From Eukaryota sp. GEM-RC1 (Eukaryota), in NCBI GenBank assembly GCA_040285855.1, contig JAUFOQ010000004.1, positions 1,054,001 to 1,118,000 on the forward strand: a DNA stretch of 64,000 nt, in the 5' to 3' direction. Shown here one piece after another: positions 13,002 through 61,709 of this stretch. Numbering within the stretch: position 1 is the stretch's first letter; every line of letters starts with the position of its first letter. The notes under the pieces were generated by a model. It searched no databases. It was not told the DNA's origin and saw only the letters and a program-made list of their open reading frames with translations. The position numbers were made by a program, and so were the translations under genes.

Positions 13002-13314
13002 TAATGATTTTTTCTTCTTCAACACTTCTGTACAGATTTCTATCGTTTTTGGTTAGTGTGTTTGATAGGAATGGTTTTCCTGCATTCATTCTTTTTCTAC
13101 ATTTCGTTTGTGGTTCTTCAAATCGGTGCTCTGTATGGCCAAAGAGTGGTTTTCCTCATTGGTATTTTTTTTGGATTCAAAACTGTTACTCGTAATTGAC
13201 TGGAATAAATTCTTTGTGTACATAAAAAACCCAGTAAAAAACCCAGACTGTATTTGTAGAATGTTGTAGAATTTTGCAGAATTCCGGCTAACTCTTCAAC
13301 TTACCTTACTTCTC

Positions 13315-14310
13315 ATGAACAGTAACGAATTTCTTGTTAATCTGCTAGCTGGGGCTACTACTGGCCTGTTTAGCGATACCATGATGTCTCCTATTGACAC
13401 TGTTCGTACCACTCTTGTTTCGCCTCATCATCGTAAAGGTAGATCGGCCTGGCAAATCGCTAAAGACATCTCTTGTACTCATGGAATTCAGGGCTTCTAC
13501 CAAGGAATCGGCCCTGTTTGCTTGTTGTCTCCGATTGCATCTGCAGTCTTTTTTGCCTCTCGACAGCATCTCAGTTCCAGCCTGATCCCATGGTGGGAAA
13601 ACAAAGGCGAAGAATTAAAGAAGAATCCTTCTCCAATAGTTGCCATACTCGGTGATCGAGTTTGCAAGAATGCTCCTGCTTTGGCATCGTCTTCATCTGG
13701 TATGATCGCTCAAACTCTTGGAAGTATGGTGTGGACTCCCATGGCAGTTCTTAGATATCGTCAGCAAACTGCTGCATCCAAGGGAATTCCCGTTCCCTCC
13801 ACCTTTGAACTTGCTGGACAGCTTGGTGTCAAGGGATTGTTCCGTGGATTTACTGCTGGTTTGGCAATGACCTTGCCATTCCAAAGTTTGTATTGGCCTG
13901 TTTATGACAAAACATTCAAGTCCATAGCGAAACTAATTGGCGAGGAAGATACCCCACGAAACAAAATGCCTGCGTGGACCATTATGTGTTCTAGTATTAC
14001 TGCCGGGTTCTTCACAAGTCTTCTCACATATCCTATAGGCACAGTCGCTGTCAATCAACAATTGAGCGATGTTCCCAAGTCTATGGTTGGAACCGCTATG
14101 GATTTGTATAAGAATGATGGAATTGCTAGTTTCTATCAAGGATTTGGTATCAAGTTTTTAGGCTCCATTCCTCGTTCTTTGATTACTATGTATTCAAACG
14201 AAAAGTTTAGAGAATTCTATAGTCAGGTTCTTACTCCTGGTGCATTTGATGAACTACCCAAGAAATTGGAACGTATTTCCAAGAATGCTGAAAAGAGATG
14301 TAAAAAATGA
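13315..14310 (+). CDS. Mitochondrial carrier family (SLC25) protein, divergent
   Basis: Tripartite structure: PIDTVRT...GIQGFYQG, PMAVLRYRQQ...GVKGLFRG, PIGTVAVNQQ...GIASFYQG. Confidence 0.9.
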   Translation: MNSNEFLVNLLAGATTGLFSDTMMSPIDTVRTTLVSPHHRKGRSAWQIAKDISCTHGIQGFYQGIGPVCLLSPIASAVFFASRQHLSSSLIPWWENKGEELKKNPSPIVAILGDRVCKNAPALASSSSGMIAQTLGSMVWTPMAVLRYRQQTAASKGIPVPSTFELAGQLGVKGLFRGFTAGLAMTLPFQSLYWPVYDKTFKSIAKLIGEEDTPRNKMPAWTIMCSSITAGFFTSLLTYPIGTVAVNQQLSDVPKSMVGTAMDLYKNDGIASFYQGFGIKFLGSIPRSLITMYSNEKFREFYSQVLTPGAFDELPKKLERISKNAEKRCKK

Positions 14311-19368: not shown

Positions 19369-21782
19369 TTACAGAGGCTTCCTTCCAGTGTTCAACAGCC
19401 AGGTCATAGTTCTTTTGACTCCTTTACCATGTTCATAACAAACACCCAGATTGACCAGCGCTTCCGTATTTCCCAATTCAGCTCCCTTTTGAAACCAGAG
19501 GGCTGCTTCAGTGTGGTTTTTCCTGGTTCCTTTTCCACGTTGATAACAAAGACCAAGTAAGTTCATGGCCACTGAGTTACCCAATTCAGCAGCTTCTCTA
19601 TAGAACTTTACTGCTTCCTTGTGGTTTTTTCGGACACCTTTCCCTTGCTCATAACAAAGACCTAGATTTTTAATAGCCATTGTACTACCCAAATTCTTAG
19701 CTTTCTCGAAGCAATCAACAGCCTGTGCAAGGTTTGCTTTCACTCCTTTCCATGCTTATAGCAAACTCCTAGTTGATTCATTGCAAAACAATCATTTAAA
19801 CCAGCAGCCTTTTGATAACACTGAAAGGCTTCCTCAATGTTCGTTGACACTCCTTTTCCACTTTCATAACACTGACCGAGCTGACTCATACCCAGAGCAC
19901 TACCTAACTCAGCAGCCTTTTGATAGGACTGGAAAGCTTCTAAGTAACTTTGGGGAACACCCCTTCCGGCTTCAAAACAAACACCAAGAAGACTCAAAGC
20001 CAGTATATTACCTAAAGCAGCAGCTTCCTTGAAACACTGAACGGCTTGAACGTAGTTTGTTGGGGTTCCGATTCCGTATTCATGACACCTGCCAAGATTA
20101 CAAATTGCTGAAGGATTTTCATATTCAGCAGCCTTTTTGTACCAAGAAAAAGCTTTTACAAGATCTTGTTTTACACCTCGATCAAGTTCAAAACACCTAC
20201 CGAGATTGTTCATAGCCATGGAATTTCTCAATTCAGCAGCCTTTTTGTACCAAGAAAAAGCTTCTACAAGAACTTGTTTTACACCTCGACCAAGTTCAAA
20301 ACACCTACCGAGATTGTTCATGGCAACAGAGTTTCCCATTTCAGCAGCCTTTTTGTACAAAGAAACAGCTTTCACCAGATCTTGTTTCACACCTCGACCA
20401 AGTTCAAAACACCGTCCAAGATTGTTTATAGCCATGGAATTTCCCAATTGAGCAGCCTTTTTGTACCAAGAGAAAGCCTTTAAAATATCAAATTCCACTC
20501 CCTGTCCATGTTCAAAACAAATGCCCAACGCAGTCATGGCTAAAACCTCCCCCAACGGAGCACGTTCCTCACACCAAGAGATAGTTAACTCTAAGAAGGT
20601 TCTAGCTTGTGAACTGCCTAAAGAATATGCTTCAAGAAACCAATACACCGCTTTTTTGACATCTTTTCCAACTACATTCCCATCATGGAAAAAATGACCT
20701 GCATTGATCATTTGATTGACATCAAGAACCGGATTCGGAGCTGATTCGTCACTTTCACATTCACAAAGCACTTCATCGTCTAATTCAGAATACTTGTAAA
20801 TAGGTATGAGTTCTTCTGTAATTAAAACATTCTTGAGCTCATTTAATAACTCTGTAACAGAAGGACGCTGATTAGGATCAACAGAGAGACATTTGTTGAT
20901 CAATGCAGATATTGATTGTGGAAAAGAATCTGGAAAATCAAGTAAATCACCGTTCATTTTTGATTGGACCATTTCTGCATAAGACATGTCCTGAAATGCT
21001 AATTGATTAACAAACATCTCGTAAAGCAACACCCCAAGACTATACACATCATAAGCTGGGCCATATTTCTTATCAAAGGCTTCCGGTGGAGTATACTTTG
21101 GAGTCATTTCAAGAGTGGAAGTGTAATGATGCATGGTATGTGCTGAACCGAAATCTGCAAGCTTAACCTTAGAATCCACAATAATGATATTTTGAGGTTT
21201 GATATCATGATGGACAATTCCTTTTGAATGTAAGAACTTCACAGCAGTGCAAATATCAATAGCTTGAGAAAGAGTTGTCGTAGAAAGTGAGGATGGTACT
21301 TCCAAATGACCAGAGCCAAGTTCCATAACGATTCCAATGTGCTTTTCAAGTCTCGTTATACCAAACACTCGAAGAACAAAGGGATGAGATAGGGATGCCA
21401 TGTGTGAGACTTCTTGTAAAAGTTTGTCTTCCTTGAAAGCGGCTCTACGTACTAGTTTGAGAGCAACAGATGTATCAGCCCACTCTGAACGATATACTGA
21501 ACCACTTAGTCCACTTCCCAATTCGGAAGCAATATCAAAGGTGATTTCTTCACGAGTGATTTCCGGCAAAACAGCAGGATTCTTAGAAAGAGTGTCCGCA
21601 GCGTCCCGTAAGGCATAAGAGGGAACCACATCGTTCATAACAGCAGTATTTCTGCAGATCGGACACTGTTTGTTATGCTCAAGCCATTGTGTTACACATA
21701 AAAGACAAAAGGAGTGACCACAGTGAAGTGTAGCAGCGTCTTTGAAAGTGTTGTTGCAGATTGTACACTCTAAATGCAGCAT
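19369..21782 (-). CDS. RING finger + Ser/Thr protein kinase + SEL1-like repeat protein (frameshift near 19745)
   Basis: CTIC..CGHSFCLLC..CPIC RING; GSGLSG, HHDIKPQN and DFG kinase motifs; more than 10 SEL1 repeats (AMNNLGRCFELGRGVKQD), with ~108-bp DNA-level tandem units at about 20120-20480. Confidence 0.9.
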
Positions 21783-22359
21783 TGTTAGTCAAGAGAGGGA
21801 AAAATTTAAATGTACATGATGAAACTATTAATATGTGATCGGAATTTTATCGACTCATGCAGTATGCTACCACGAATAGAGGTCAGGACTGAATACTTTT
21901 GAGGCAAATATTAAATATATGGTGTCCACACTTTGTCGGACATCTTCCAGTTAAAACAATTACGTTGTTAATTCAATTCTTCTTTGGTACCTTCTGCTAC
22001 AGTTCATGATACATAAGTATCAACTTCAACATACAAGTGTTAAGAGAGCCAGAACATTAGGAACAAGAGTGTCTTTGCGAAAGTTCAGGTTTTGGACTGG
22101 TAATGTTCATCAGGGAGTCTAGTTGCAACTTGGTACACCTGTACGTCTTGATAACGCCTGATAACAATCGGTTATTGCAATAGGTTTTGATGGTACAGTG
22201 TCATAGAATAGTATCAAATGTGACTTCTATGACGTCAGAACTTGTGAGAAATAAACAGCATAAGATAGATGAAGGTCTTGAGGGTACTCTTGGATACCTG
22301 AAATTTACTGATGTTCAAGTCCAATTTTAAAATTCGCACTTTTCTCGATCCCAAGACTC

Positions 22360-26619: not shown

Positions 26620-27309
26620 GCTGCAACCGTTAATAATCTTGTTGACAAGATAACTGTTACAAAATACCCACACGCTGGATTATTACCACCTTTGAAGGTA
26701 CTGTTTAATCAAAATTTTGTTAGTTGACTACTACTACTGTGATATTCGTTTACGAACATCTCAAGAAGTACTTTGTTGATACTTGACAAGTAAGCTACTT
26801 TTACAAAGAGTTTTGCAACATTGATTATATTATTTATAGAGTCTGTCTGAATTGACAACTTACTGCACAACCTTGGCTAAAAACGTCATGTAACATCATG
26901 TGACAGAATCAATTTAGCTTAATGTAGTTTACAAAGATGACTTAAAAGCGTACAACATGGATATTGTAAAACACACTAAAATTTGATTTTATCTAAAATA
27001 CACTAAAACACAAAATGGAGTGTCTGACAAATACATTGTAATCGATATAAAAAAAGGCTCTGGTGTAGAAGATCATGGCTTAGTTCATCACTTCATAATG
27101 AGTAGTAGATGACCTCCATAACGCACATGTGGACAGGAAAGGAGAATGAAGAGGCGAAAGTGTGTAGAAAACTGTCCGTGACAATGGTAATCATCAACTA
27201 TCATTACCAATGATGCAATGAGGTTTCGAGGTCACCATTTTGCTTGGAAACAAGAATGAAAAACACTCAGTTCAATAGGAAACATCATACAAACAGTCTG
27301 TCATTTCCT

Positions 27310-30300
27310 ATGAGTCAAGCCTCTGGTTCAACCACTAGGTTAGCCGCCGAAGATTCCAAGGGTCGCCAATCATGGGTTCAACGTTTGCTCTTCGGGGTAG
27401 CATCTCTTCATGGTTCTGTGAAGAAACCTCATAATGTCTGGTCTTACGTGCTGTTATTTGTCCAGTTTATCCAAATACTGGGGTTCGTTCTCCGTGAGAC
27501 CGTGTTTCATGAAGTGTTTGATCTAGAACCTATCCTTACATACGCATCCTTCCCTTCTACAGCGCCTGGACAGCGCTGTCAGGTCCTGCTCTTCTGCTCT
27601 CGCTCTTTGCCGCTCTGATTTTGATTTCGATTCTTTTGATTGTAATTTGCACATGCCCCAACATCAATTCCCATGTCCTCCTCTCCCTTCGATCTTCTCT
27701 TGAGCTTCTTGTCACTGTTCTCTACATTCCCTTGTTTTCCTACTTCCTCTCTTTCGTTCCTTGTGGCCGATCTTTTGACCCTACTGGTATCACTTTCGAA
27801 GAAGGCGTCGCTGGAAACTGCTCCTCCTCTATGTCTCTCCTCTACAGATCTGTTGGTCTTCTTGGTGCTGTCATCTTGTTCTGTCTCGCTCTGCTATGGA
27901 CTGTTTACTACGACAACTCGCCCACATCTAAGAGATGCTTTGCTCGATCTCATAACCGTTTCTGCTTCTGGTATTTGATGTCCATCACCTACATTTTGGT
28001 TATCTTCTTCATCTTTCACAGTAGATTTTGGCTCTGTAGAGTTTCCTATCTCTTGGTTCCCCTCTTTCTCTCTTACAAACTCTACTTCTACGTCTCCTTC
28101 TACAAAAGAGCGGCAAATACTTTACACATGTCTATGTTAGGTATTTGGGTTGGCACTGCGATTGGATTTATCATCAACTCTTTGATCAAAATAGATTATT
28201 TTGAGGAAGATGTCTTTCACTCAATGGTATATTTTCCTTTGTTTGTTGTTTTTGGCGGAATTTGGTATTTAATCATGAGTATTCGTATCAAGAGAATCTT
28301 TACCAAAGTTTTCTCTATTAATGCAGAACTACTTGAAAACGGTTTAATTGTCGAAGGATCTCCAAGTGATGAAATTGACACCTATGATTTCTCTCCCCAT
28401 ATGTCCAAATTATTCAAAAATGTCTACTATTTTGACCTGCTATCACGTGCTCTTCAGCCTCTACCTTTGGGTAACCCTCTTGTTCTCACTGTTAAATCTC
28501 TGTATTCTTTCGGAGAACGTTGGTTTTCCGGTGATGTCATGTATTTATGTTTAAAATTGTTATTTGAAATTCATGTTCTTAAGGATCCTATTAGTGCAAC
28601 AGTAACTATAAGTACCATCAATACTCTGTATATTGACTGTAAACCTGACGAATCTATCATCATTTGGCGTGCAATTCAACAACTTGAAGCCCTCAGAAGA
28701 CAACAATCAACTGGTCATGACGTCGACACTTCCTCTTTTGTTCTGTTTCAGCGTCAACAAACTCATCTAGCTGAACTTCATCGTGATTGTCTTGATGGAT
28801 TATACGCTTTTTGGACTGTGCTTTCAAAACCTAAAGTTGACTTAACTTTACTACCTTCAATTCTAGGAATAGTTTCTAAAAGTAAACAAACAATTGTTTC
28901 CAGCTTTACTCAATTACTTCGTCAGCATGGAAATCAACAATCACTACTCACTTCTTATGCTGCTTATGTTAGAGAAGTTGAATGTGATGAAGAACGTGCT
29001 ATTGCTCTAGATGAACAAGCTGAGTTGCTTTCTGCTAGTGAAAGAAATTCAAGTCAAGGAGCCAGTTCATATGCTGGATCGTTTACTATTTCAAAATCTG
29101 GAAAGAAGAAGAAAACAAAAAGAAGTTCAAAGTTTAACCTCGACTCAATGACAACTTCTGGTGGTCAAGAATCTAAAAGGAGTGCCATTGTTGTCCTTCA
29201 ATTATCAGTAATTGTTGCTTTCATAATCATGACTCTCATTGCTGCTGCTTCTTTTCTTCTATCCGCTAATGTTCTGGCTTCTGCTTCAGATCGAATTGAC
29301 CAATTATATGAACTTTCCCATGTTCATTCTGTTTCTGAGTTGATTGGATTAACAGCTGGGCGTGTTTTTTTAAATTTGAATGGTCAAATCACTGAGAATT
29401 TCGCTAATGTCCTAATTAAAGAATCTGAGCATTTAACTTTCCATTTGAGAAGATTATCTTTAATCCACCCTTTAGATGACGATTACACTGAAATTCCATG
29501 TCCAAGATCCAATAACAGGTCAATCAAACCTCCTTCCAGTGACTTACAAACAGAGATGCGCTTACTACGATTCCCAGTCATTCTGGTCAATAACTTTGTC
29601 CCTCCTTTGGAAGAAGCTAGAGTGCTTTCTGCCTGGACATTGGGACTTGCACAAGCTTTATATAGTACCAGAGCTGGTACAATATTGGATTCTGGTACCT
29701 CTTTGACTTTTGAACATTTAACCAGTATTAGAGGAAGTTTGAATGGATTCTCTAACGCCCTTGACAATATCTATGAGTGGTTAGTTTCTGATTCTGACTC
29801 TTTTTTCAGTCTTTCATTCGCCATTCAAATTTTAATGAACATTTTAATTTCAGTTGTCATTTTAGTTATTGGTTTTGTACTGTTCGCTAAATCATTTTCC
29901 AAAATCATTGACCAACGAATTGCCATTTTGAACTTGTTTTTGTATATTCCACAAACGGAAATTCAAAAATTAATGAATGATCCAAAATTTGATTATATGA
30001 GGAAGAAAAAAAGTAAAGCCACGTCATCTTTTTCCGTGACTGCTTCTTCTGATGAAGATTCAGATACTGAAGTTTCTCGTAAACCCAAGTCATTAAAAGT
30101 GAATGAGGATGTTTTGTTTGAATTACAAGAGGCCAATTCCTCAGAAGAGAAAGACAAAAACACGTTCCAATTCCATTTCTAGTCAATATTTTAATTATTG
30201 CTTTAACGATTATCTGTCTTGCTATTGGAGGTGTATCAATTTTTCTCTTATTAAACATTACAAATAGCAACGATGAAGTTAATTCTCAATTCCATGTAGC

Positions 30301-32544
30301 ACTCGATGCAAGAAATACTGCTGCTGACGTGACCTTGATTGACCATGACGTGTCTGCTGCAATGCAGTTATTTACTGCTTTTGGTGACGATCAATTTCTC
30401 TTACAATATTTTGATTTAATTCATTCTGGGAGACGACAACGAGCTCTAACTAGTTTTCTTTCTCTAGAGTTGACTGAAGATCAGTTATTGTCCATTTCTC
30501 AGGTTGGTACTTATGCAAATGCGATTAGAAGGCTAGAATTCATTTCTGGACGGTTAATCTGCTCTGTTTTTGATGTTGATGAATCTCTGTGCTCAAGATT
30601 TAATGATTTTAATTATGACGCTCAATTAGAAACTAACTATTTCCGAGACAAATTAGAATATGACGATGTTTTCTGGTATTCTACTTTAGAACAAGACCTT
30701 GAGAGATCAGTGGACGATCGTTTGAATATAGCTAGGAATGCCCAATACAATTCACGGTTAGCTGCAGTTTTCCTCTCTCTATTGTTTACACTTGAAGGTA
30801 CTGCTATTGCCATTGTAGACTCTTTGTTTGATTCTATTAATGAGATTTATAATGGTGTTAGTTCCGAGTTCCTTTTTTTCTGGTCAGCTATTATAAGTAT
30901 CACAATCATTATTTTAATTATAAGTGTTATTTGAGTCTTGAATCGAAAACGTTTACGTGTAGCGGGATTCTTTTGTACATCTTTGTTGCATTATTTGTAG
31001 TTCTCATTGCATCATCTGTTTACTTCTCCACTACTGCAGAATCTGTCTTTGTTCATGATATTTCTCCACTTATTATTGAATCTCGACGAGTTTTTGACAT
31101 GGTTGTCGCTGTGGAGTGGCAATTTAACTTTCTACGAAGAAGATTTGATCAATTGACATTTTCAAATACCTTTGAACATTTTGTGTCAGCTCAGGAGTCG
31201 TACCAAAATTTACGTCAACATGTTGAATCATTTGACTCTAGCTTTGTCTCTCATCCAGCATTGATACAAGCTATTGATTCCATCAACCATCAATTGGATT
31301 TGATTGAGGATAGTTTAATGGAGTATATCCAGCGTGTACAAATCATTTCTAAATGGGCCACGTATCACCTTCCTGAATATGAGTTATCAACTTTAGTTAA
31401 TATTACTTGGGATATTGACCAATTACCATTAAATGAACGAAACACTTGGGTTTTGCCCCATGGATATAGTCTCAGCAATTCAGAAACAGATTTGTCAAAA
31501 GATGTCGAATATTTAAAAAATGCTTCCAGGGCTATCCTTACTTCTAAATATTTCTACTCATTAACTAGAGATGTAGTTGAATCCTTTGCAGAAATCCGTC
31601 GATCTACTACCATTACTTTACTTAATGTTGTTGACCCATTTGATACGAAACTTGTGAATAATTTAGAAATAACAGTATATTTGATTGTTGGTTTGCTTGT
31701 TTCTACTGTATTGTGCTGTTTCTTTATCGTGTTATCTGGACTTAAGCAAAAGTTAAAAGCTTCACATGTCAAGCAAAAGATTTCTTTTCCAGTCATGGTT
31801 AATTACACCAAACAGTATGTAGTTTCACTTTCAATTTTATTCATTGTTCTGTCAATGTTTTATTTTGGTTCTCTCATTGGTTTTACTCAACTTCGATCTT
31901 TACCCAGATTAATTCAAGATTATGGCACTAGATCAGCTCTAATCACGCGATCTACAAATGATGTTGTTTCTGCATTAATAGATTCAGAACAACAGGTTCA
32001 TTATTTAAACAATGCCAAAATTTCCCTTCATAGTCTCACACGACTTCACCACGCTTTGGTCGTAAATCATATTGATGATGATTTCAAACAAACAGAATTG
32101 CTTTTTGACAGTAAATTTATCAAGAACTCTAAAGCTATCACCTCTGTGGATGAGAATCATGGCCTTCACAGTTTTTTAATTAATTATATTAATTTCGCCG
32201 AATTGTTCGCCACTCAAGATATTTCAATAGATTATTCAAATTCTAGCCCGGATTTGGCAAATCTTTTGGTTCATTTTGATACTCTTTATGAAATGTCGTT
32301 GGAAGCTATCGATAACATTCACAGTTACTCTATTAAACAAATCGACTTCTTTTCCACTTATATTATGGTCGTTTTTATTGCTTTTATTGTAGTTCTCACA
32401 ACTTCTTATGTTTTCGTATTTCGTACAATGTTGAAAGATTTAAAAGAAGAAGAGGTTTTAACCTTGGAGTTCTTGGAAATGATTCCTGAAGGTATTATGT
32501 CTAAGATAAGTGGGATTCAAAGCTTCCTTGCCACGATTCAATGA
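27310..32544 (+). CDS. Very large polytopic membrane protein, TmcB/TmcC (tiny macrocysts)-like, with three frameshifts
   Basis: N-terminal multi-TM region, helical region (LYAFWTVL...SYAAYVREVECDEERA), repeated TM-loop-TM modules ending LNLFLYIPQTEI and LEFLEMIPEGI. ORFs 27244-27618, 27621-30182, 30329-30934 and 30931-32544. Confidence 0.7.
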
Positions 32545-33463: not shown

Positions 33464-33681
33464 ACTTTAACATTAGTTGTAGATATCACACATTATGCAA
33501 CAAGGACAAGATCAAGAATTAACAAAAAGAAGTCAGTAAGAGAACAACATTTTGTCGTTATTAATTTAGTCATAATCAGAGCAACTGTAGCATTACTGAA
33601 TCTCCTGTGACAGTACTCGTTTTCAGATATTTCAGTAAGTTAAGTAATGGAAGAATAGCAGAAGTCAATCAATTTCTTTCA

Positions 33682-34461
33682 ATGTCTCGTCGTCCTTTTT
33701 TTGGTGGAAACTGGAAGGTATTTTTCTCCATCATGCTCTCATTATTAGTGTAATGGAACTGTGGAAAGCGTCGAGAAGCATGTAGCAACTCTTAACAAAG
33801 CTACTCTCGATCCCAATGTTGATATCGTTGTTTGTCCCTCCTATCTTCACATCCACTATACCATGACTAAGATCAAAGATCAGATCAAGGTTGGTGCCCA
33901 AGATTGTTCATTGTACAGTTATGGAGCTTACACTGGAGCCATCAACTCTGAAATGTTGAAGGATTACGGTCTGAGTGGGTGATCGTCGGTCATTCTGAAC
34001 GCCGATCTTACTTTAACGAGACCAACGAAAGTGCAGCTGCCAAGGCTGCTAAAGCTATCGGAGACGGTCTCTCTGTTATCTTCTGCTTTGGTGAATCTTT
34101 GGAAGAGTTCAAGGCAGGAAAGACAAACGAAGTTGTTGAGCAACAACTCGCTCCTCTTTTCGAAAAACTTTCTGTCGAACAATGGGATAAGGTTGTCCTT
34201 GCATATGAGCCTGTCTACGCTATTGGAACTGGCTTAGTCTGTGATACCCAACAAGCTCAATCTACTCACTCTTTCATCAGACAGTTGGTAGGCAAAACTT
34301 CTTCTGATGTTGCAGGTAAAGTGCGTATCATTTATGGTGGATCAGTTAAAGCATCTAACGCTGTAGAACTAGCTTCTCAATCTGATATCGATGGTTTCCT
34401 TGTTGGTGGAGCATCGCTTAAACCTGAATTTGCTGACATCTGCAACTCCAAAAGAGCATAA
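33682..34461 (+). CDS. TPI1: Triosephosphate isomerase (31-nt intron 33718-33748; 1-nt frameshift near 33972)
   Basis: MSRRPFFGGNWK|CNG after splicing; GAYTG, VIVGHSERR, AYEPVYAIGTG, YGGSV, DGFLVGGASL. Confidence 0.97.
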
Positions 34462-44266: not shown

Positions 44267-46323
44267 TTAACCTCAGCAGGATGAAACCTTCACGGCAGCA
44301 CCCTTAGGAGTAATTGTATTACAAATCTGTTCAGCTGCAGTAGGATGAATTCCAACAGTGGTATCCAACATCTTCTTAGTACCTTTAGCCTTAACAAATG
44401 AAGAGAATCCTTGAATCATCTCACCAGCACCACGGGGAGCTAACAAATGAATGCCAAGTACACGATCATCAAGTACATTTACAATAACCTTACAATGACA
44501 AATAAAAGAATCTGAGACAAAAGCCCAATAAGCAGGAGTCCAAGAAGAAGTGAAAACAGCAACCTTATCACCAAAGACTTCCTTAGCCTTAGCCTCCGAG
44601 AGACCAACAAAGGAGTATTCTCTGGGGGCAAGGAACATGCAAGAAGCAATGTTCTGATAGTCCATACGATCAGTTGATCCTCCGTATAATCGATCAAGTA
44701 AGAGCTTAGTAGATTGAGTGGCTACAGGAGTCAATTCAGGGATTCCGAAGACAACATCACCAACAGCGTAGATATTAGGAATAGTAGTTCGTTCATTAAC
44801 ACACTTAATCTTTCCATTCTTTTCAGGAACAATTCCCACCTTTTCCAAAGCAAGTTGATCAGTGTTGGGGGTACGACCTGCAGCGTAAACAACAGTATCA
44901 AAAATGCCAGACTTTTGACCTTTAGGAGTGTTGAAGGTCACGTGAAGGTCACCGTCCTTCTTCTCAATCTTTTCAATGGTAGTCTTCATCATAAAAACAA
45001 CTCCTAGTAGATTCTCCATGTCCTGGGAGATTTGGTCAGCAATATCATTATCGACCGTACGTAAGACCTTGCTTCTAACCGCGACCATTACAGTAGATCC
45101 TAATTCACACAAGAAACCAGCGGCTTCAAGTGCAATAAAACCAGCTCCAACAATCAAGGCACGTTTGGGTTGCTCCTTTAATCTAAAGAGCTCATCACTG
45201 GTAATCACGTGTTCAGCTCCATCAAACTTGGGCATTGTGGGTCTTCCTCCAACAGAAATAACAATTCTACGACCAGTAATGTTCTTGGGTGGATCGTTTG
45301 ACTCTGGGTTGTAGATTGCAACGGTATTAGCATCAACAAATGACCCTTTACCAAAGAAGAGATCAATTCCCATTTCAGGAAGGGAAGTTTCGTAGTTAGT
45401 ACTGGTATTGGTCACGTTGTTTTGAACGCTATCAACTAGCTTAGTCCAATCAAAAGTTGATTCAACTTCATGGCCATACTTGGAAGCAAACTCGCTGTGA
45501 AGAGTACGTTGAAGTCCAGCAGATTCATGGATCTGAATCTTGGGAATACAGCCACGGAGAGCACAGGTTCCTCCAACAGAGTAGTTAGGGTAGTACTCAA
45601 CGACGGCAACTTTGAGGTTGTATTTAGAAACAGCATACTTAGCACCAGCAACACCAGCGGAACCTCCACCAATGAAGATGAGGTCGTATTGGAGACCAGC
45701 AGCGGAACCTTTATCAAACGCAGGGTGAGAGCGGCTGAGAGGGACGGATCCGGATTCAACAGCTAGTTGACCATAGAGTCGGTTGAGGAGACGGTTGCGT
45801 TTAGATTGGACGATAGCTTTGATGAAAATGCAAAAGAACACAAAAGGCAAAGGCACCTTCGGCAAATGAAAAGATGGTCAGCATTCCAAGACAAACGACA
45901 GCAACGTAGGGATACTCAAGGAGAATGGCAGCAAGGGAGATGGCAGTGAACAGAGAACCAACAAAATAAGCTCGTCTTTTGGGAACGGTTGGACATGGGT
46001 TGGAAGGGAACATGTAGGACAAGATTTTGGACACCCATCCTAATGGGGAGAACATAGGACCGATCAAAAACCTGAAATGAGACTAGATAATGAGTACAAA
46101 CCTCAACACGAAATCACCAACAAGAGCATAAATCACATAAGAAACATATTCGTTTTCGAGGATAGAAGAAGTTCGCTAGCCAAGCCATACCCATAAAGGA
46201 AGTCAACATGGAACCAATTCTAGCTTCAGCAGATTCCATCTTCTTGGGGTAACGGATACCATGATAGAAAAAGGGCAAACGACGTTTTTTTCCTTCGAGT
46301 TCGCTATCCATGTTTACGTACAT
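44267..46323 (-). CDS. TXNRD: Selenocysteine-containing high-Mr thioredoxin reductase with an N-terminal DUF4395-like membrane domain (30-nt intron 46072-46101; apparent 1-nt insertions near 46160 and 45833)
   Basis: GGGSAG, GGTCALRGCIPK, GAGFIALE, HPTAAE; C-terminus TCA TCC TGC TGA GGT TAA = SSC-U-G-stop. The upstream part reads EARIGS...DFVLRFLIGPMFSPLG...PKRRAYFVG...EGAFAFCVLC after splicing and correction. Confidence 0.88.
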
Positions 46324-60139: not shown

Positions 60140-60558
60140 TTAATCAAAAACTCTATCGCACCCGGGACAGTAATCCTCAACTCTAAATCCAAAGTACTCA
60201 AATACAAGTTCTGCTGGGGTGACAAGCGCTAACGGTGTCCTAAAACTACTTCGGTGAAAGAAACCAAGCATCGACCCATCCAAGCAATAGAACGGTGCAC
60301 CTGAATCTCCACTCGAATAGAAAATCGTTCCTATGGCAAAAGGCTGCTCTATAGAGTCCGGAGCTCTTATTAAATACTGGTTTCGAAACAATCGTGTTGG
60401 AGCTGATGAACAAACATGAAGTAGGTGTCCATCTGACTCAGTGAGACTGAGGTTGGACTCTGGACGAGCATCTCTAATCTTCGTAACAACTTGACCAAAA
60501 CAAAAGGCGCTTGCATGAGCAATTTTAAAAACAGTTTGATGGGATAAATCCAGATTGC
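60140..60558 (-). pseudogene. C-terminal half of a trypsin-like (Nal1/Ssy5-like) serine protease interrupted by a transposon
   Basis: Open frame SNLDLSHQTVFKIAHAS...SSGDSGAPFYCLDGSMLGFFH carrying the catalytic Ser motif GDSG. Confidence 0.8.
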
Positions 60559-60645
60559 TACTACTACTGTGAAATTTTTTTTAAGTGCATATGTGAGATT
60601 TTTCCAATTTCCTCTCAGAGTAATATCTCACAGCCCATTTTCTGC

Positions 60646-61709
60646 ATGACCTTATCTTTTGACCTTCTCTGCGATCCTGAAGTAGATCTCTTTACTCTTA
60701 CACATCATGCGAGTGAAGATACGAAAGTACGTGCTGTATGGACATATTTGTGGCTCGAAAAAACTCAAGCAGAGGTTTCTTCTTACTACGCGATCAATCA
60801 ATCTACTCTATCTCGATGGGTTAGACAAGCGTTTAAACCGAAAGAATCCCATCTTAGGGACATATCCATATTAGATGATCATGATAGAGACTTCATTCTG
60901 ACAACTCTTGAGGAAACACCGGAGCTATATCTTAGGGAAATCGTAGAATTGTTGCTTCATCAACGCCATAAAAGTGTTAGTGTCAGTACAATACATCGTT
61001 TCTTAATACACTCAGGATACTCTTGGAAGCGATGCCAAATATTAGTCAAGAGAGCCAAACGGAGCTTAATAGTCGCTTTCGAGAACAGACTTCTAATGAC
61101 TATTGGACCCATCCGACAACATCGTCTGCTGTTTGTTGATGAAATAACTTTCAGGGCTGGAGACTTTGAACGAACCAGTGTTTGGTCCCCTAAAGGAGCT
61201 CCAGTACATAAACTCATGTCTACTCAGGTTTCTCAACCGATCTCGGCTTGTGTTGCTATTGATATCAATGGATATGTTATGGCACATATCCAAGAAGGCC
61301 ACTTCAACCGATCTCAGTTCGTCTCATTTTTAACCTCTCTTATTTCTCATGGAATTCTTTATACTTTTGGTGGTCCACGAAGTTGTATTGTGTTGGACGG
61401 TTGTAATATCCACAACCATGACAATATCATACATGGTATGCGTAAAGCAGGAGTGGCATACCACATTCTTCCACCTTATTGCCCGGATTCTAATCCGATT
61501 GAAACCTTTTTTCAAAGTTTCGTAAAATTGTCCGTGCAAATAGAAGACAATACAGTGAGTTGCGTCCTATTGCGTATCTACACTTGATTCTGGAGTATTT
61601 TATGCGATTTAATTGTTCTGATATCTTTGACCATGGTGGTTGGAAAGAGAATCAAATCTATCAATCTCCATATTTGATTAAACCTCACCTTAACAAAAAT
61701 TTAGAATAA
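60646..61709 (+). CDS. DD34E transposase (IS630/Tc1); 1-nt frameshift in the T-run near 61510
   Basis: HTH (QAEVSSYYAINQSTLSRWV; PELYLREI..VSVSTIHRFL), LFVDE, VLDG, LPPYCPDSNPIE with 34 residues between D and E; the shifted frame stays open to TAA at 61709. Confidence 0.92.

Follow-up and report, generated by a model that had tools for sequence, protein, structure and literature searches.

A thioredoxin reductase with a predicted DUF4395 membrane anchor and a probable Cys–Sec tail in Eukaryota sp. GEM-RC1

Introduction

Large thioredoxin reductases (TrxRs) are, to our knowledge, known as soluble enzymes that occur alone or fused to glutaredoxin. In the stretch of DNA analysed here (64,000 nucleotides, referred to below as the window and used for all positions) a TrxR frame on the minus strand (44273–45877) has no ATG ahead of its FAD-binding motif, as an earlier note made from the letters of this DNA had remarked, and upstream of that motif lies hydrophobic coding sequence resembling DUF4395, a membrane domain family with a CxxC motif. 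The locus raises the question of whether the two are parts of one gene and, if they are, what a membrane dithiol could be doing at the front of such a reductase.

The membrane and reductase parts form one gene

The fused gene occupies 46323–44267, with all of its parts on the minus strand, and the product counted from the ATG at 46311 has about 670 residues. The features are as follows.

46162–46323, minus strand: gene start, N-terminal arm and helix 1 of DUF4395 (65% identity to residues 1–51 of P0001, see below)
46311, minus strand: ATG start codon, the alternative being an in-frame ATG at 46323
46160–46161, minus strand: break 1, CC where the orthologues imply a single C; probable assembly error
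46102–46160, minus strand: DUF4395 helix 2 (DFxxR motif) and the remainder of exon 1 (Pfam and P0001 alignment)
46072–46101, minus strand: intron of 30 nt, GT...AG, with an in-frame TAG (10-residue gap in both orthologues)
45834–46071, minus strand: DUF4395 core with the GPxFSP amphipathic helix, PKR motif and helices 3 and 4 (PF14340, E 2e-10; P0001-domain model)
45830–45842, minus strand: membrane CxxC (CVLC), split by break 2 (TTTT at 45835–45832); CVLC in P0001 and P0002
45689–45829, minus strand: basic amphipathic helix and linker, about 50 residues before the FAD-binding motif
44279–45688, minus strand: high-Mr TrxR core with FAD, NADPH and dimer domains and the His–Glu pair in IHPTAAE (Pfam Pyr_redox_2 and Pyr_redox_dim)
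45548–45565, minus strand: N-terminal redox centre CALRGC (from the sequence)
44267–44278, minus strand: Cys-TGA(probable Sec)-Gly-TAA tail, reading TGC TGA GGT TAA
44176–44238, minus strand: SECIS-like hairpin beginning 29 nt past the stop (Rfam SECIS_1 under cut-off, and inspection)

The best two matches to the TrxR part (56% identity) are P0001 (666 aa, from Eukaryota sp. TZLM1-RC) and P0002 (639 aa, from TZLM3-RCL), and both are intact single proteins with the same DUF4395–TrxR architecture (PF14340 together with TrxR domains). They align to three frames of the window in turn, the frame switching at the two 1-nt breaks: residues 1–51 of P0001, then residues 52–150 and then the rest match successive frames, and the 10 codons of the intron are absent. 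The earlier note had proposed such a single ORF, restored by removal of a 30-nt intron and two extra bases, and each element of that proposal was borne out. The alignment crosses both breaks, the intron runs from GT to AG at 46101–46072 and matches the 10-residue gap in both orthologues, and the extra bases, in CC at 46161–46160 and in TTTT at 45835–45832, lie where the orthologue alignment shifts frame. Introns of 29 and 31 nt are present in two other genes of the window. The identity of the membrane part was confirmed with Pfam, the piece 45804–46082 matching DUF4395 with E 2e-10 and 41.5 bits (44.5 was also scored) against a cut-off of 24.5, and the spacing from DUF4395 to the FAD-binding motif is 49–68 residues in all ten of the other fusions measured. 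The GTG start that had been given for a separate TrxR track does exist, at 45856, but the codon at 45865, where it had been placed, is TTG. A stand-alone TrxR initiated from either the GTG or the TTG was rejected since the orthologues run straight through, and read-through of the TAG instead of splicing was rejected since those 10 residues are absent from the orthologues. Judged from these alignments, the DUF4395–TrxR fusion is one real gene.

The two 1-nt breaks are most likely assembly errors, because other genes of the window, triosephosphate isomerase for example, are broken likewise. Among 39 window ORFs scanned with Pfam, a domain or repeat continues in another frame in three other genes, namely triosephosphate isomerase, CPSF160 and a Sel1 kinase. 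The triosephosphate isomerase gene (33680–34461, plus strand) contains an intron of 31 nt, and near 33970 its Pfam domain is interrupted by a frameshift of one base. It could be argued instead that the fusion is real in the relatives and that both 1-nt insertions are genuine here, the gene being dead or recoded, given that the two breaks lie within 330 nt and that both are insertions, whereas the breaks in triosephosphate isomerase and the Sel1 kinase, the clearest controls, resemble single-base losses in short runs. We consider this very unlikely, not only in view of the frameshift within the Pfam domain of triosephosphate isomerase. Both breaks in the fusion gene only lengthen short base runs, the membrane pieces are 65–66% identical to P0001 as against 55% for the reductase part, stops are confined to the intron, and synonymous codon use scores best in the expected frame in four out of four pieces.

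A divergent reductase with a probable Cys–Sec terminus

The TrxR core carries the N-terminal CxxxxC centre (CALRGC), the His–Glu pair and the FAD, NADPH and dimer domains, and its closest solved relatives are insect and mammalian TrxRs and flatworm thioredoxin glutathione reductase (TGR). With the high-Mr TrxRs (Drosophila 2NVK/3DGH, rat 1H6V, human TXNRD1) it shares these domains, the CxxxxC, the His–Glu pair and a C-terminal redox tail at about 40% identity. Those enzymes are soluble whereas the window protein is predicted to be membrane-anchored; it is also without the loop that other TrxRs have before GGTC, and it ends in SSCUG where they end in GCUG. Against TIGR01438 the window protein scores 372.8, P0001 396.3 and P0002 398.2, all below the cut-off of 475.85, which is passed by the fusions P0124, P0270 and P0141 and by the soluble paralogue P0066. 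By sequence, the TrxR core of the window is divergent. P0066 is an ordinary soluble TrxR also encoded by the TZLM3-RCL genome, so the fusion is a second enzyme in that organism.

The reading frame closes with Cys-TGA-Gly-TAA, and from its position and conservation the TGA is likely to be read as selenocysteine. In the protein records nine out of the ten other fusions end at the tail Cys (the tenth is partial), as would be expected if gene callers had stopped at UGA. The SECIS-like hairpin scores 21 bits (E 1.3) against Rfam SECIS_1, for which the cut-off is 35; read by eye, it consists of a GUGA/GA core, an AA bulge at a distance of 11 nt and an apical mini-stem, and its stability is no greater than that of shuffles (z −0.69). 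A home-made SECIS scan gave no match, the candidate hairpin included, and was therefore unusable as a control. Taken with the membrane part, these results support the earlier suggestion of a membrane-anchored TrxR with a Cys–Sec tail, the tail being probable.

Schistosoma TGR (PDB 2V6O, 2X8C, 22EY) resembles the window protein in having a high-Mr TrxR core, a C-terminal Cys–Sec tail and an extra N-terminal CxxC module directly before the FAD domain (PMC13138743). In TGR, according to the same source, FAD takes electrons from NADPH and passes them to the N-terminal dithiol, from which they reach the Cys–Sec tail of the other subunit; this tail then reduces thioredoxin or the fused CxxC module. 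The module here differs in being a four-helix integral membrane DUF4395 and not a soluble glutaredoxin; Pfam gave no match to a glutaredoxin or glutathione-binding domain in the window protein, the N-terminal part of which is DUF4395.

The CxxC is predicted to lie on the cytosolic side

When the P0001 domain was modelled from 112 sequences, the result reached a pLDDT of 95.9 (a first model from 5 sequences, with a pLDDT of 58.6, was discarded). It has four long helices, helix 2 is followed by an amphipathic helix, and a further helix after helix 4 begins with the CxxC. The CxxC is present in 148 out of 154 family sequences, the six exceptions ending or shifting frame at or before the motif. 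Both of its Cys columns are at least 99% conserved, and Cys occurs in no other alignment column in more than 17% of rows. Two further positions are near-invariant in the family, the glycine of CxGC (93%) and the phenylalanine of KRFA (96%), and the window clade departs at both; the fusion gene reads CVLC and KRRA at the motifs that the earlier note had given in their CxGC and KRFA forms. In 50 of the 148 members, none of them a TrxR fusion, the tail contains a second CxxC.

Basic residues are concentrated at the two ends of the domain and in loop 2, with few in the other loops: mean K+R is 6.45 for loop 2 and 2.16 for the C-terminus but 0.47 for loop 1 and 0.18 for loop 3. With four helices, the positive-inside rule would place the CxxC in the cytosol, and on the model both termini, the CxxC and the conserved residues R10, R49, K80 and E120 are predicted to be on the cytosolic side, where an enzyme that uses NADPH has to be located.

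This bears on the proposal in the earlier note that electrons are carried across the membrane. Such transfer, either by a CxxC moving from side to side as in CcdA or through quinone as in DsbB and VKOR, would reduce a lumenal or extracellular acceptor, and a four-helix membrane domain with a CxxC lends itself to the idea. DsbB, VKOR and CcdA/DsbD are likewise small helical membrane domains with catalytic cysteines and thioredoxin-fold partners, and look-alikes of the DUF4395 domain in the Atlas include VKOR (TM 0.46) and NrfD (TM 0.49), both weak and under the naming bar. However, no sequence match to DsbB, VKOR or CcdA/DsbD was found. DsbB and VKOR act on the periplasmic or lumenal side, whereas for DUF4395 the prediction is a cytosol-facing CxxC; and in place of the two mid-membrane cysteines, reachable from both sides, that characterize CcdA/DsbD, DUF4395 has as its only conserved cysteines a CxxC that follows helix 4, at the end predicted to be cytosolic. 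Cys is found in loop 1 in only 2% of rows and in loop 3 in 4%, and the conserved polar residues are on the cytosolic half of the domain. Because the CxxC is predicted on the same side as the reductase and there is no conserved cysteine outside, trans-membrane transfer is unsupported and we regard it as distinctly unlikely.

Comparison with solved structures gave the domain no name. No solved relative was found by sequence (best E 0.061), Foldseek with the domain model gave no match at E ≤ 0.001, and a wide search of PDB structures yielded nothing beyond four-helix bundles of a generic kind (best Z 9.2, rmsd 3.3, 95 aligned); DsbB, VKOR and CcdA were not among the 50 rows listed by that search, a result that does not exclude kinship with them.

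Distribution and origin of the fusion

Five of the best 120 matches to the TrxR part contain both PF14340 and TrxR domains, and a search with a DUF4395 profile (1168 proteins at E ≤ 0.001) added five further TrxR fusions. The named sources are Cantina marsupialis, Pygsuia biforma and Cyanophora paradoxa, in addition to metagenome records, and the architecture is thus found in other protists. We take Cantina to be a stramenopile, Pygsuia a breviate and Cyanophora a glaucophyte, and TZLM1-RC to belong to the same skoliomonad group as TZLM3-RCL. The latter is a skoliomonad metamonad (PMC11316075). The same DUF4395–TrxR junction was read by eye in genomic DNA with introns at locus L001. Two loci came out of 355 stretches in a metagenome scan. 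When long proteins with the P0001 domain were sought by shared words, P0001 and P0002 alone were retrieved among 193 candidates, the reach of the profile search being wider, and the viral contigs searched contained no match.

Fusion partners were scanned in 30 of the 48 proteins of at least 200 aa among 150 listed of the 1168 matches. TrxR was found in 5 of these, glutaredoxin in 14, a thioredoxin-like domain in 2 and DUF4395 alone in 4, while the non-redox partners were SLAC1 in 11 (7 of these also with glutaredoxin) and RGS in one. A redox role for DUF4395, as the earlier note had suggested, is supported by the 21 out of 30 that bear a TrxR, glutaredoxin or thioredoxin-like domain. Fusions of DUF4395 to glutaredoxin or to thioredoxin-like domains occur in other protists. 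Among the architectures seen are glutaredoxin–DUF4395–SLAC1–hemerythrin (P0186, P0201, P0221 and P0250), RGS–DUF4395 (P0237), CRAL/TRIO–glutaredoxin–DUF4395 (P0161) and thioredoxin-like–DUF4395 (P0191 and P0232).

When the reductase tree was built without glutathione reductase outgroups (36 rows, 17 left out) all nine fusions fell on one side of a branch with support 50; with these outgroups the window clade separates from the other fusions. The domain tree (127 of 153 rows) requires two changes for the fusions, and a single clade is not rejected (p-AU 0.51). As far as the sequences go, the trees allow a single origin of the fusion. No donor for a lateral transfer can be named from either the reductase or the domain tree, and with DUF4395 widespread in protist proteins and the fusion present in four distant eukaryote groups the lateral acquisition put forward earlier stays conjectural.

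In public databases the fusion proteins are entered as hypothetical, with precomputed assignments of both Pfam domains. In agreement with the earlier note, no description of the DUF4395–TrxR fusion was found in the literature searched, which left out most subscription journals. Searches on 'membrane-anchored thioredoxin reductase' and on protist TrxRs found nothing on it, DUF4395 itself has passing mentions in the literature searched, and the fusion is not mentioned in the main text of PMC11316075 or in five of six readable files of its supplement. The architecture is real and apparently undescribed.

DUF4395 in bacteria and a possible link to sulfur

Bacterial DUF4395 (PF14340), as in the actinomycete thioredoxin–DUF4395–cysA–sseC cluster of the Ms5788 locus, has the same four helices, the same R, KxFA, E and CxxC motifs and an adjacent dithiol donor, but it stands alone, in about 150–190 residues, and under a cysteine-sensing leader. 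The title of a 2014 paper already links PF14340 to sulfur metabolism. In one actinomycete class DUF4395 was present in 52 of the 81 genomes searched, a tally in which two unpublished genomes are counted; their loci did not enter the later analyses. At 28 of the 30 best-scoring actinomycete loci, with thioredoxin and rhodanese profiles built from 6 and 4 sequences of these same loci, a thioredoxin lay no more than 1.5 kb away in 26 cases and a tandem rhodanese in 27 cases, and DUF4395 lies between the anchored thioredoxin and the sulfurtransferase. In 23 of the 26 partner thioredoxins (L088–L116) a hydrophobic helix is followed by 3–7 K/R, which suggests that this ThiX-like protein has a cytosol-facing catalytic domain. 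This charge count adds to the case against trans-membrane transfer, although mycobacterial ThiX, contrary to the count, is predicted to be periplasmic (PMC7643837), which would favour it.

An ORF with at least three Cys lies upstream of DUF4395 at 20 of the 28 actinomycete loci, against 2 on the reverse strand. The Cys leader peptide described in mycobacteria is shared by actinomycetes more widely, lying about 60–220 nt upstream of DUF4395 (L088–L116) with a common KRRAVDLCR-like core and 2–4 Cys (8 in L105). The upstream ORFs match the cysteine-limitation attenuator of Ms5788: cysteine represses that gene, which precedes cysA2, by way of such a leader (10.1101/834739). From the gene order at L105 we infer that Ms5788 is the DUF4395 gene; the family is not named in that paper.

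Another bacterial subfamily (80 loci) has two CxxC motifs. There the thioredoxin and rhodanese profiles matched at none of the 80, and the 89 adjacent same-strand ORFs included only three dioxygenase–rhodaneses, two PALP enzymes and one TauE, and no thioredoxin. For Cys leaders this subfamily showed no enrichment, with 10 of 80 versus 7. Two unannotated families recur beside DUF4395 at these loci (L003–L082), one at 9 loci (L019:2213–3250) and the other at 6 (L065:3152–3931), and an LMWPc gene is convergent to DUF4395 at 8. Five plasmid copies were viewed. One is flanked by a GDCCVxC (seleno)protein and a thioredoxin-domain protein, and the other four are without such a neighbour. The Thiothrix plasmid operon (L118, 4690–7915) encodes the GDCCVxC (seleno)protein, DUF4395 and the thioredoxin-domain protein and also two cytochrome c peroxidases and the small subunit of an arsenate reductase (azurin). 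One plasmid copy sits among copper and heavy-metal genes.

A proposed electron relay

The reading towards which we lean is that of a membrane-anchored reductase which reduces its own cytosol-facing CxxC, this dithiol in turn probably acting on a sulfur compound. The four-helix DUF4395 would anchor a large-type TrxR at the cytosolic face of the membrane, electrons would run from NADPH through FAD, CALRGC and the predicted Cys–Sec tail to the membrane CxxC, and, with DUF4395 standing where the glutaredoxin of TGR stands, free thioredoxin would be dispensable. Once reduced, the CxxC would act on a substrate bound by the adjacent conserved Arg, Lys and Glu, the candidates at the membrane being a disulfide, a persulfide or thiosulfate-derived sulfur. 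Transfer of electrons from the Cys–Sec tail to the membrane CxxC seems to us reasonably likely, since DUF4395 takes the place of the TGR module and elsewhere is often fused to, or found beside, a thioredoxin-fold carrier. What would make a sulfur substrate probable is the position of actinomycete DUF4395 between an anchored thioredoxin and a sulfurtransferase, but taken by itself we hold this assignment only tentatively.

Some observations point away from the relay and from sulfur. The two-CxxC subfamily is without the partners (0/80), the second CxxC in 50 of 148 members would suit a four-cysteine metal site, the non-redox partners (SLAC1 in 11 of 30, RGS in 1 of 30) have to be accounted for, and the window clade departs at two near-invariant positions. 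The cysteines of DUF4395 might instead form a metal site (for Zn, an Fe–S cluster or a heavy metal) or a redox sensor, the domain mainly anchoring or regulating a TrxR that reduces soluble thioredoxins near the membrane. Besides the second CxxC, this would be in keeping with the regulatory look of the SLAC1 fusions (with their hemerythrin-like domains) and the RGS fusion, and with the plasmid copy among copper and heavy-metal genes. We nevertheless think it unlikely: the second CxxC is absent from all TrxR fusions, dithiol carriers are the commonest partners among the 30 proteins scanned, and in the model the CxxC sits at a helix start, which is where catalytic dithiols sit.

A self-reducing membrane CxxC is thus the reading we retain. 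An integral-membrane TrxR kept across distant protists would be a new architecture for a much-studied selenoenzyme. As the reductant is built in, NADPH turnover could be used to screen what DUF4395 reduces, which makes an orphan family testable, and the outcome would bear on the DUF4395 gene of those 52 of 81 actinomycete-class genomes and on the protist glutaredoxin–DUF4395–SLAC1 channels. A bolder version, which we put forward as possible but rather doubtful, is that the DUF4395 proteins are membrane thiol oxidoreductases of an unrecognized class, with a fold of their own, and that the protein is a self-contained NADPH-driven membrane selenoenzyme, old in eukaryotes, which reduces sulfur compounds at the membrane or passes electrons into it. 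If true, it would provide a function and a ready-made assay for the whole family, including the cysteine-regulated mycobacterial Ms5788.

Other features of the window

Upstream of the fusion gene lie genes for a type I phosphomannose isomerase (47993–49207, minus strand) and tRNA-Ala(AGC) (49328–49400, minus strand), with no evident link to it. The Sel1 kinase mentioned above (19372–21788, minus strand) combines a RING finger, a protein kinase and Sel1 repeats in one protein, with a frameshift near 19745. A very long TmcB-like membrane protein (Pfam TPR_TmcB) is spread over four overlapping frames at 27214–32544 (plus strand), and a mitochondrial carrier family protein with three repeats is encoded at 13270–14310 (plus strand), the closest relatives of this organism having extremely reduced mitochondria. 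Two probable mobile elements, both on the plus strand, are represented by a DDE_3 (IS630/Tc1-like) transposase at 60529–61587 and by a Cas12f1/TnpB-like zinc-ribbon match, under the cut-off, at 675–1019.
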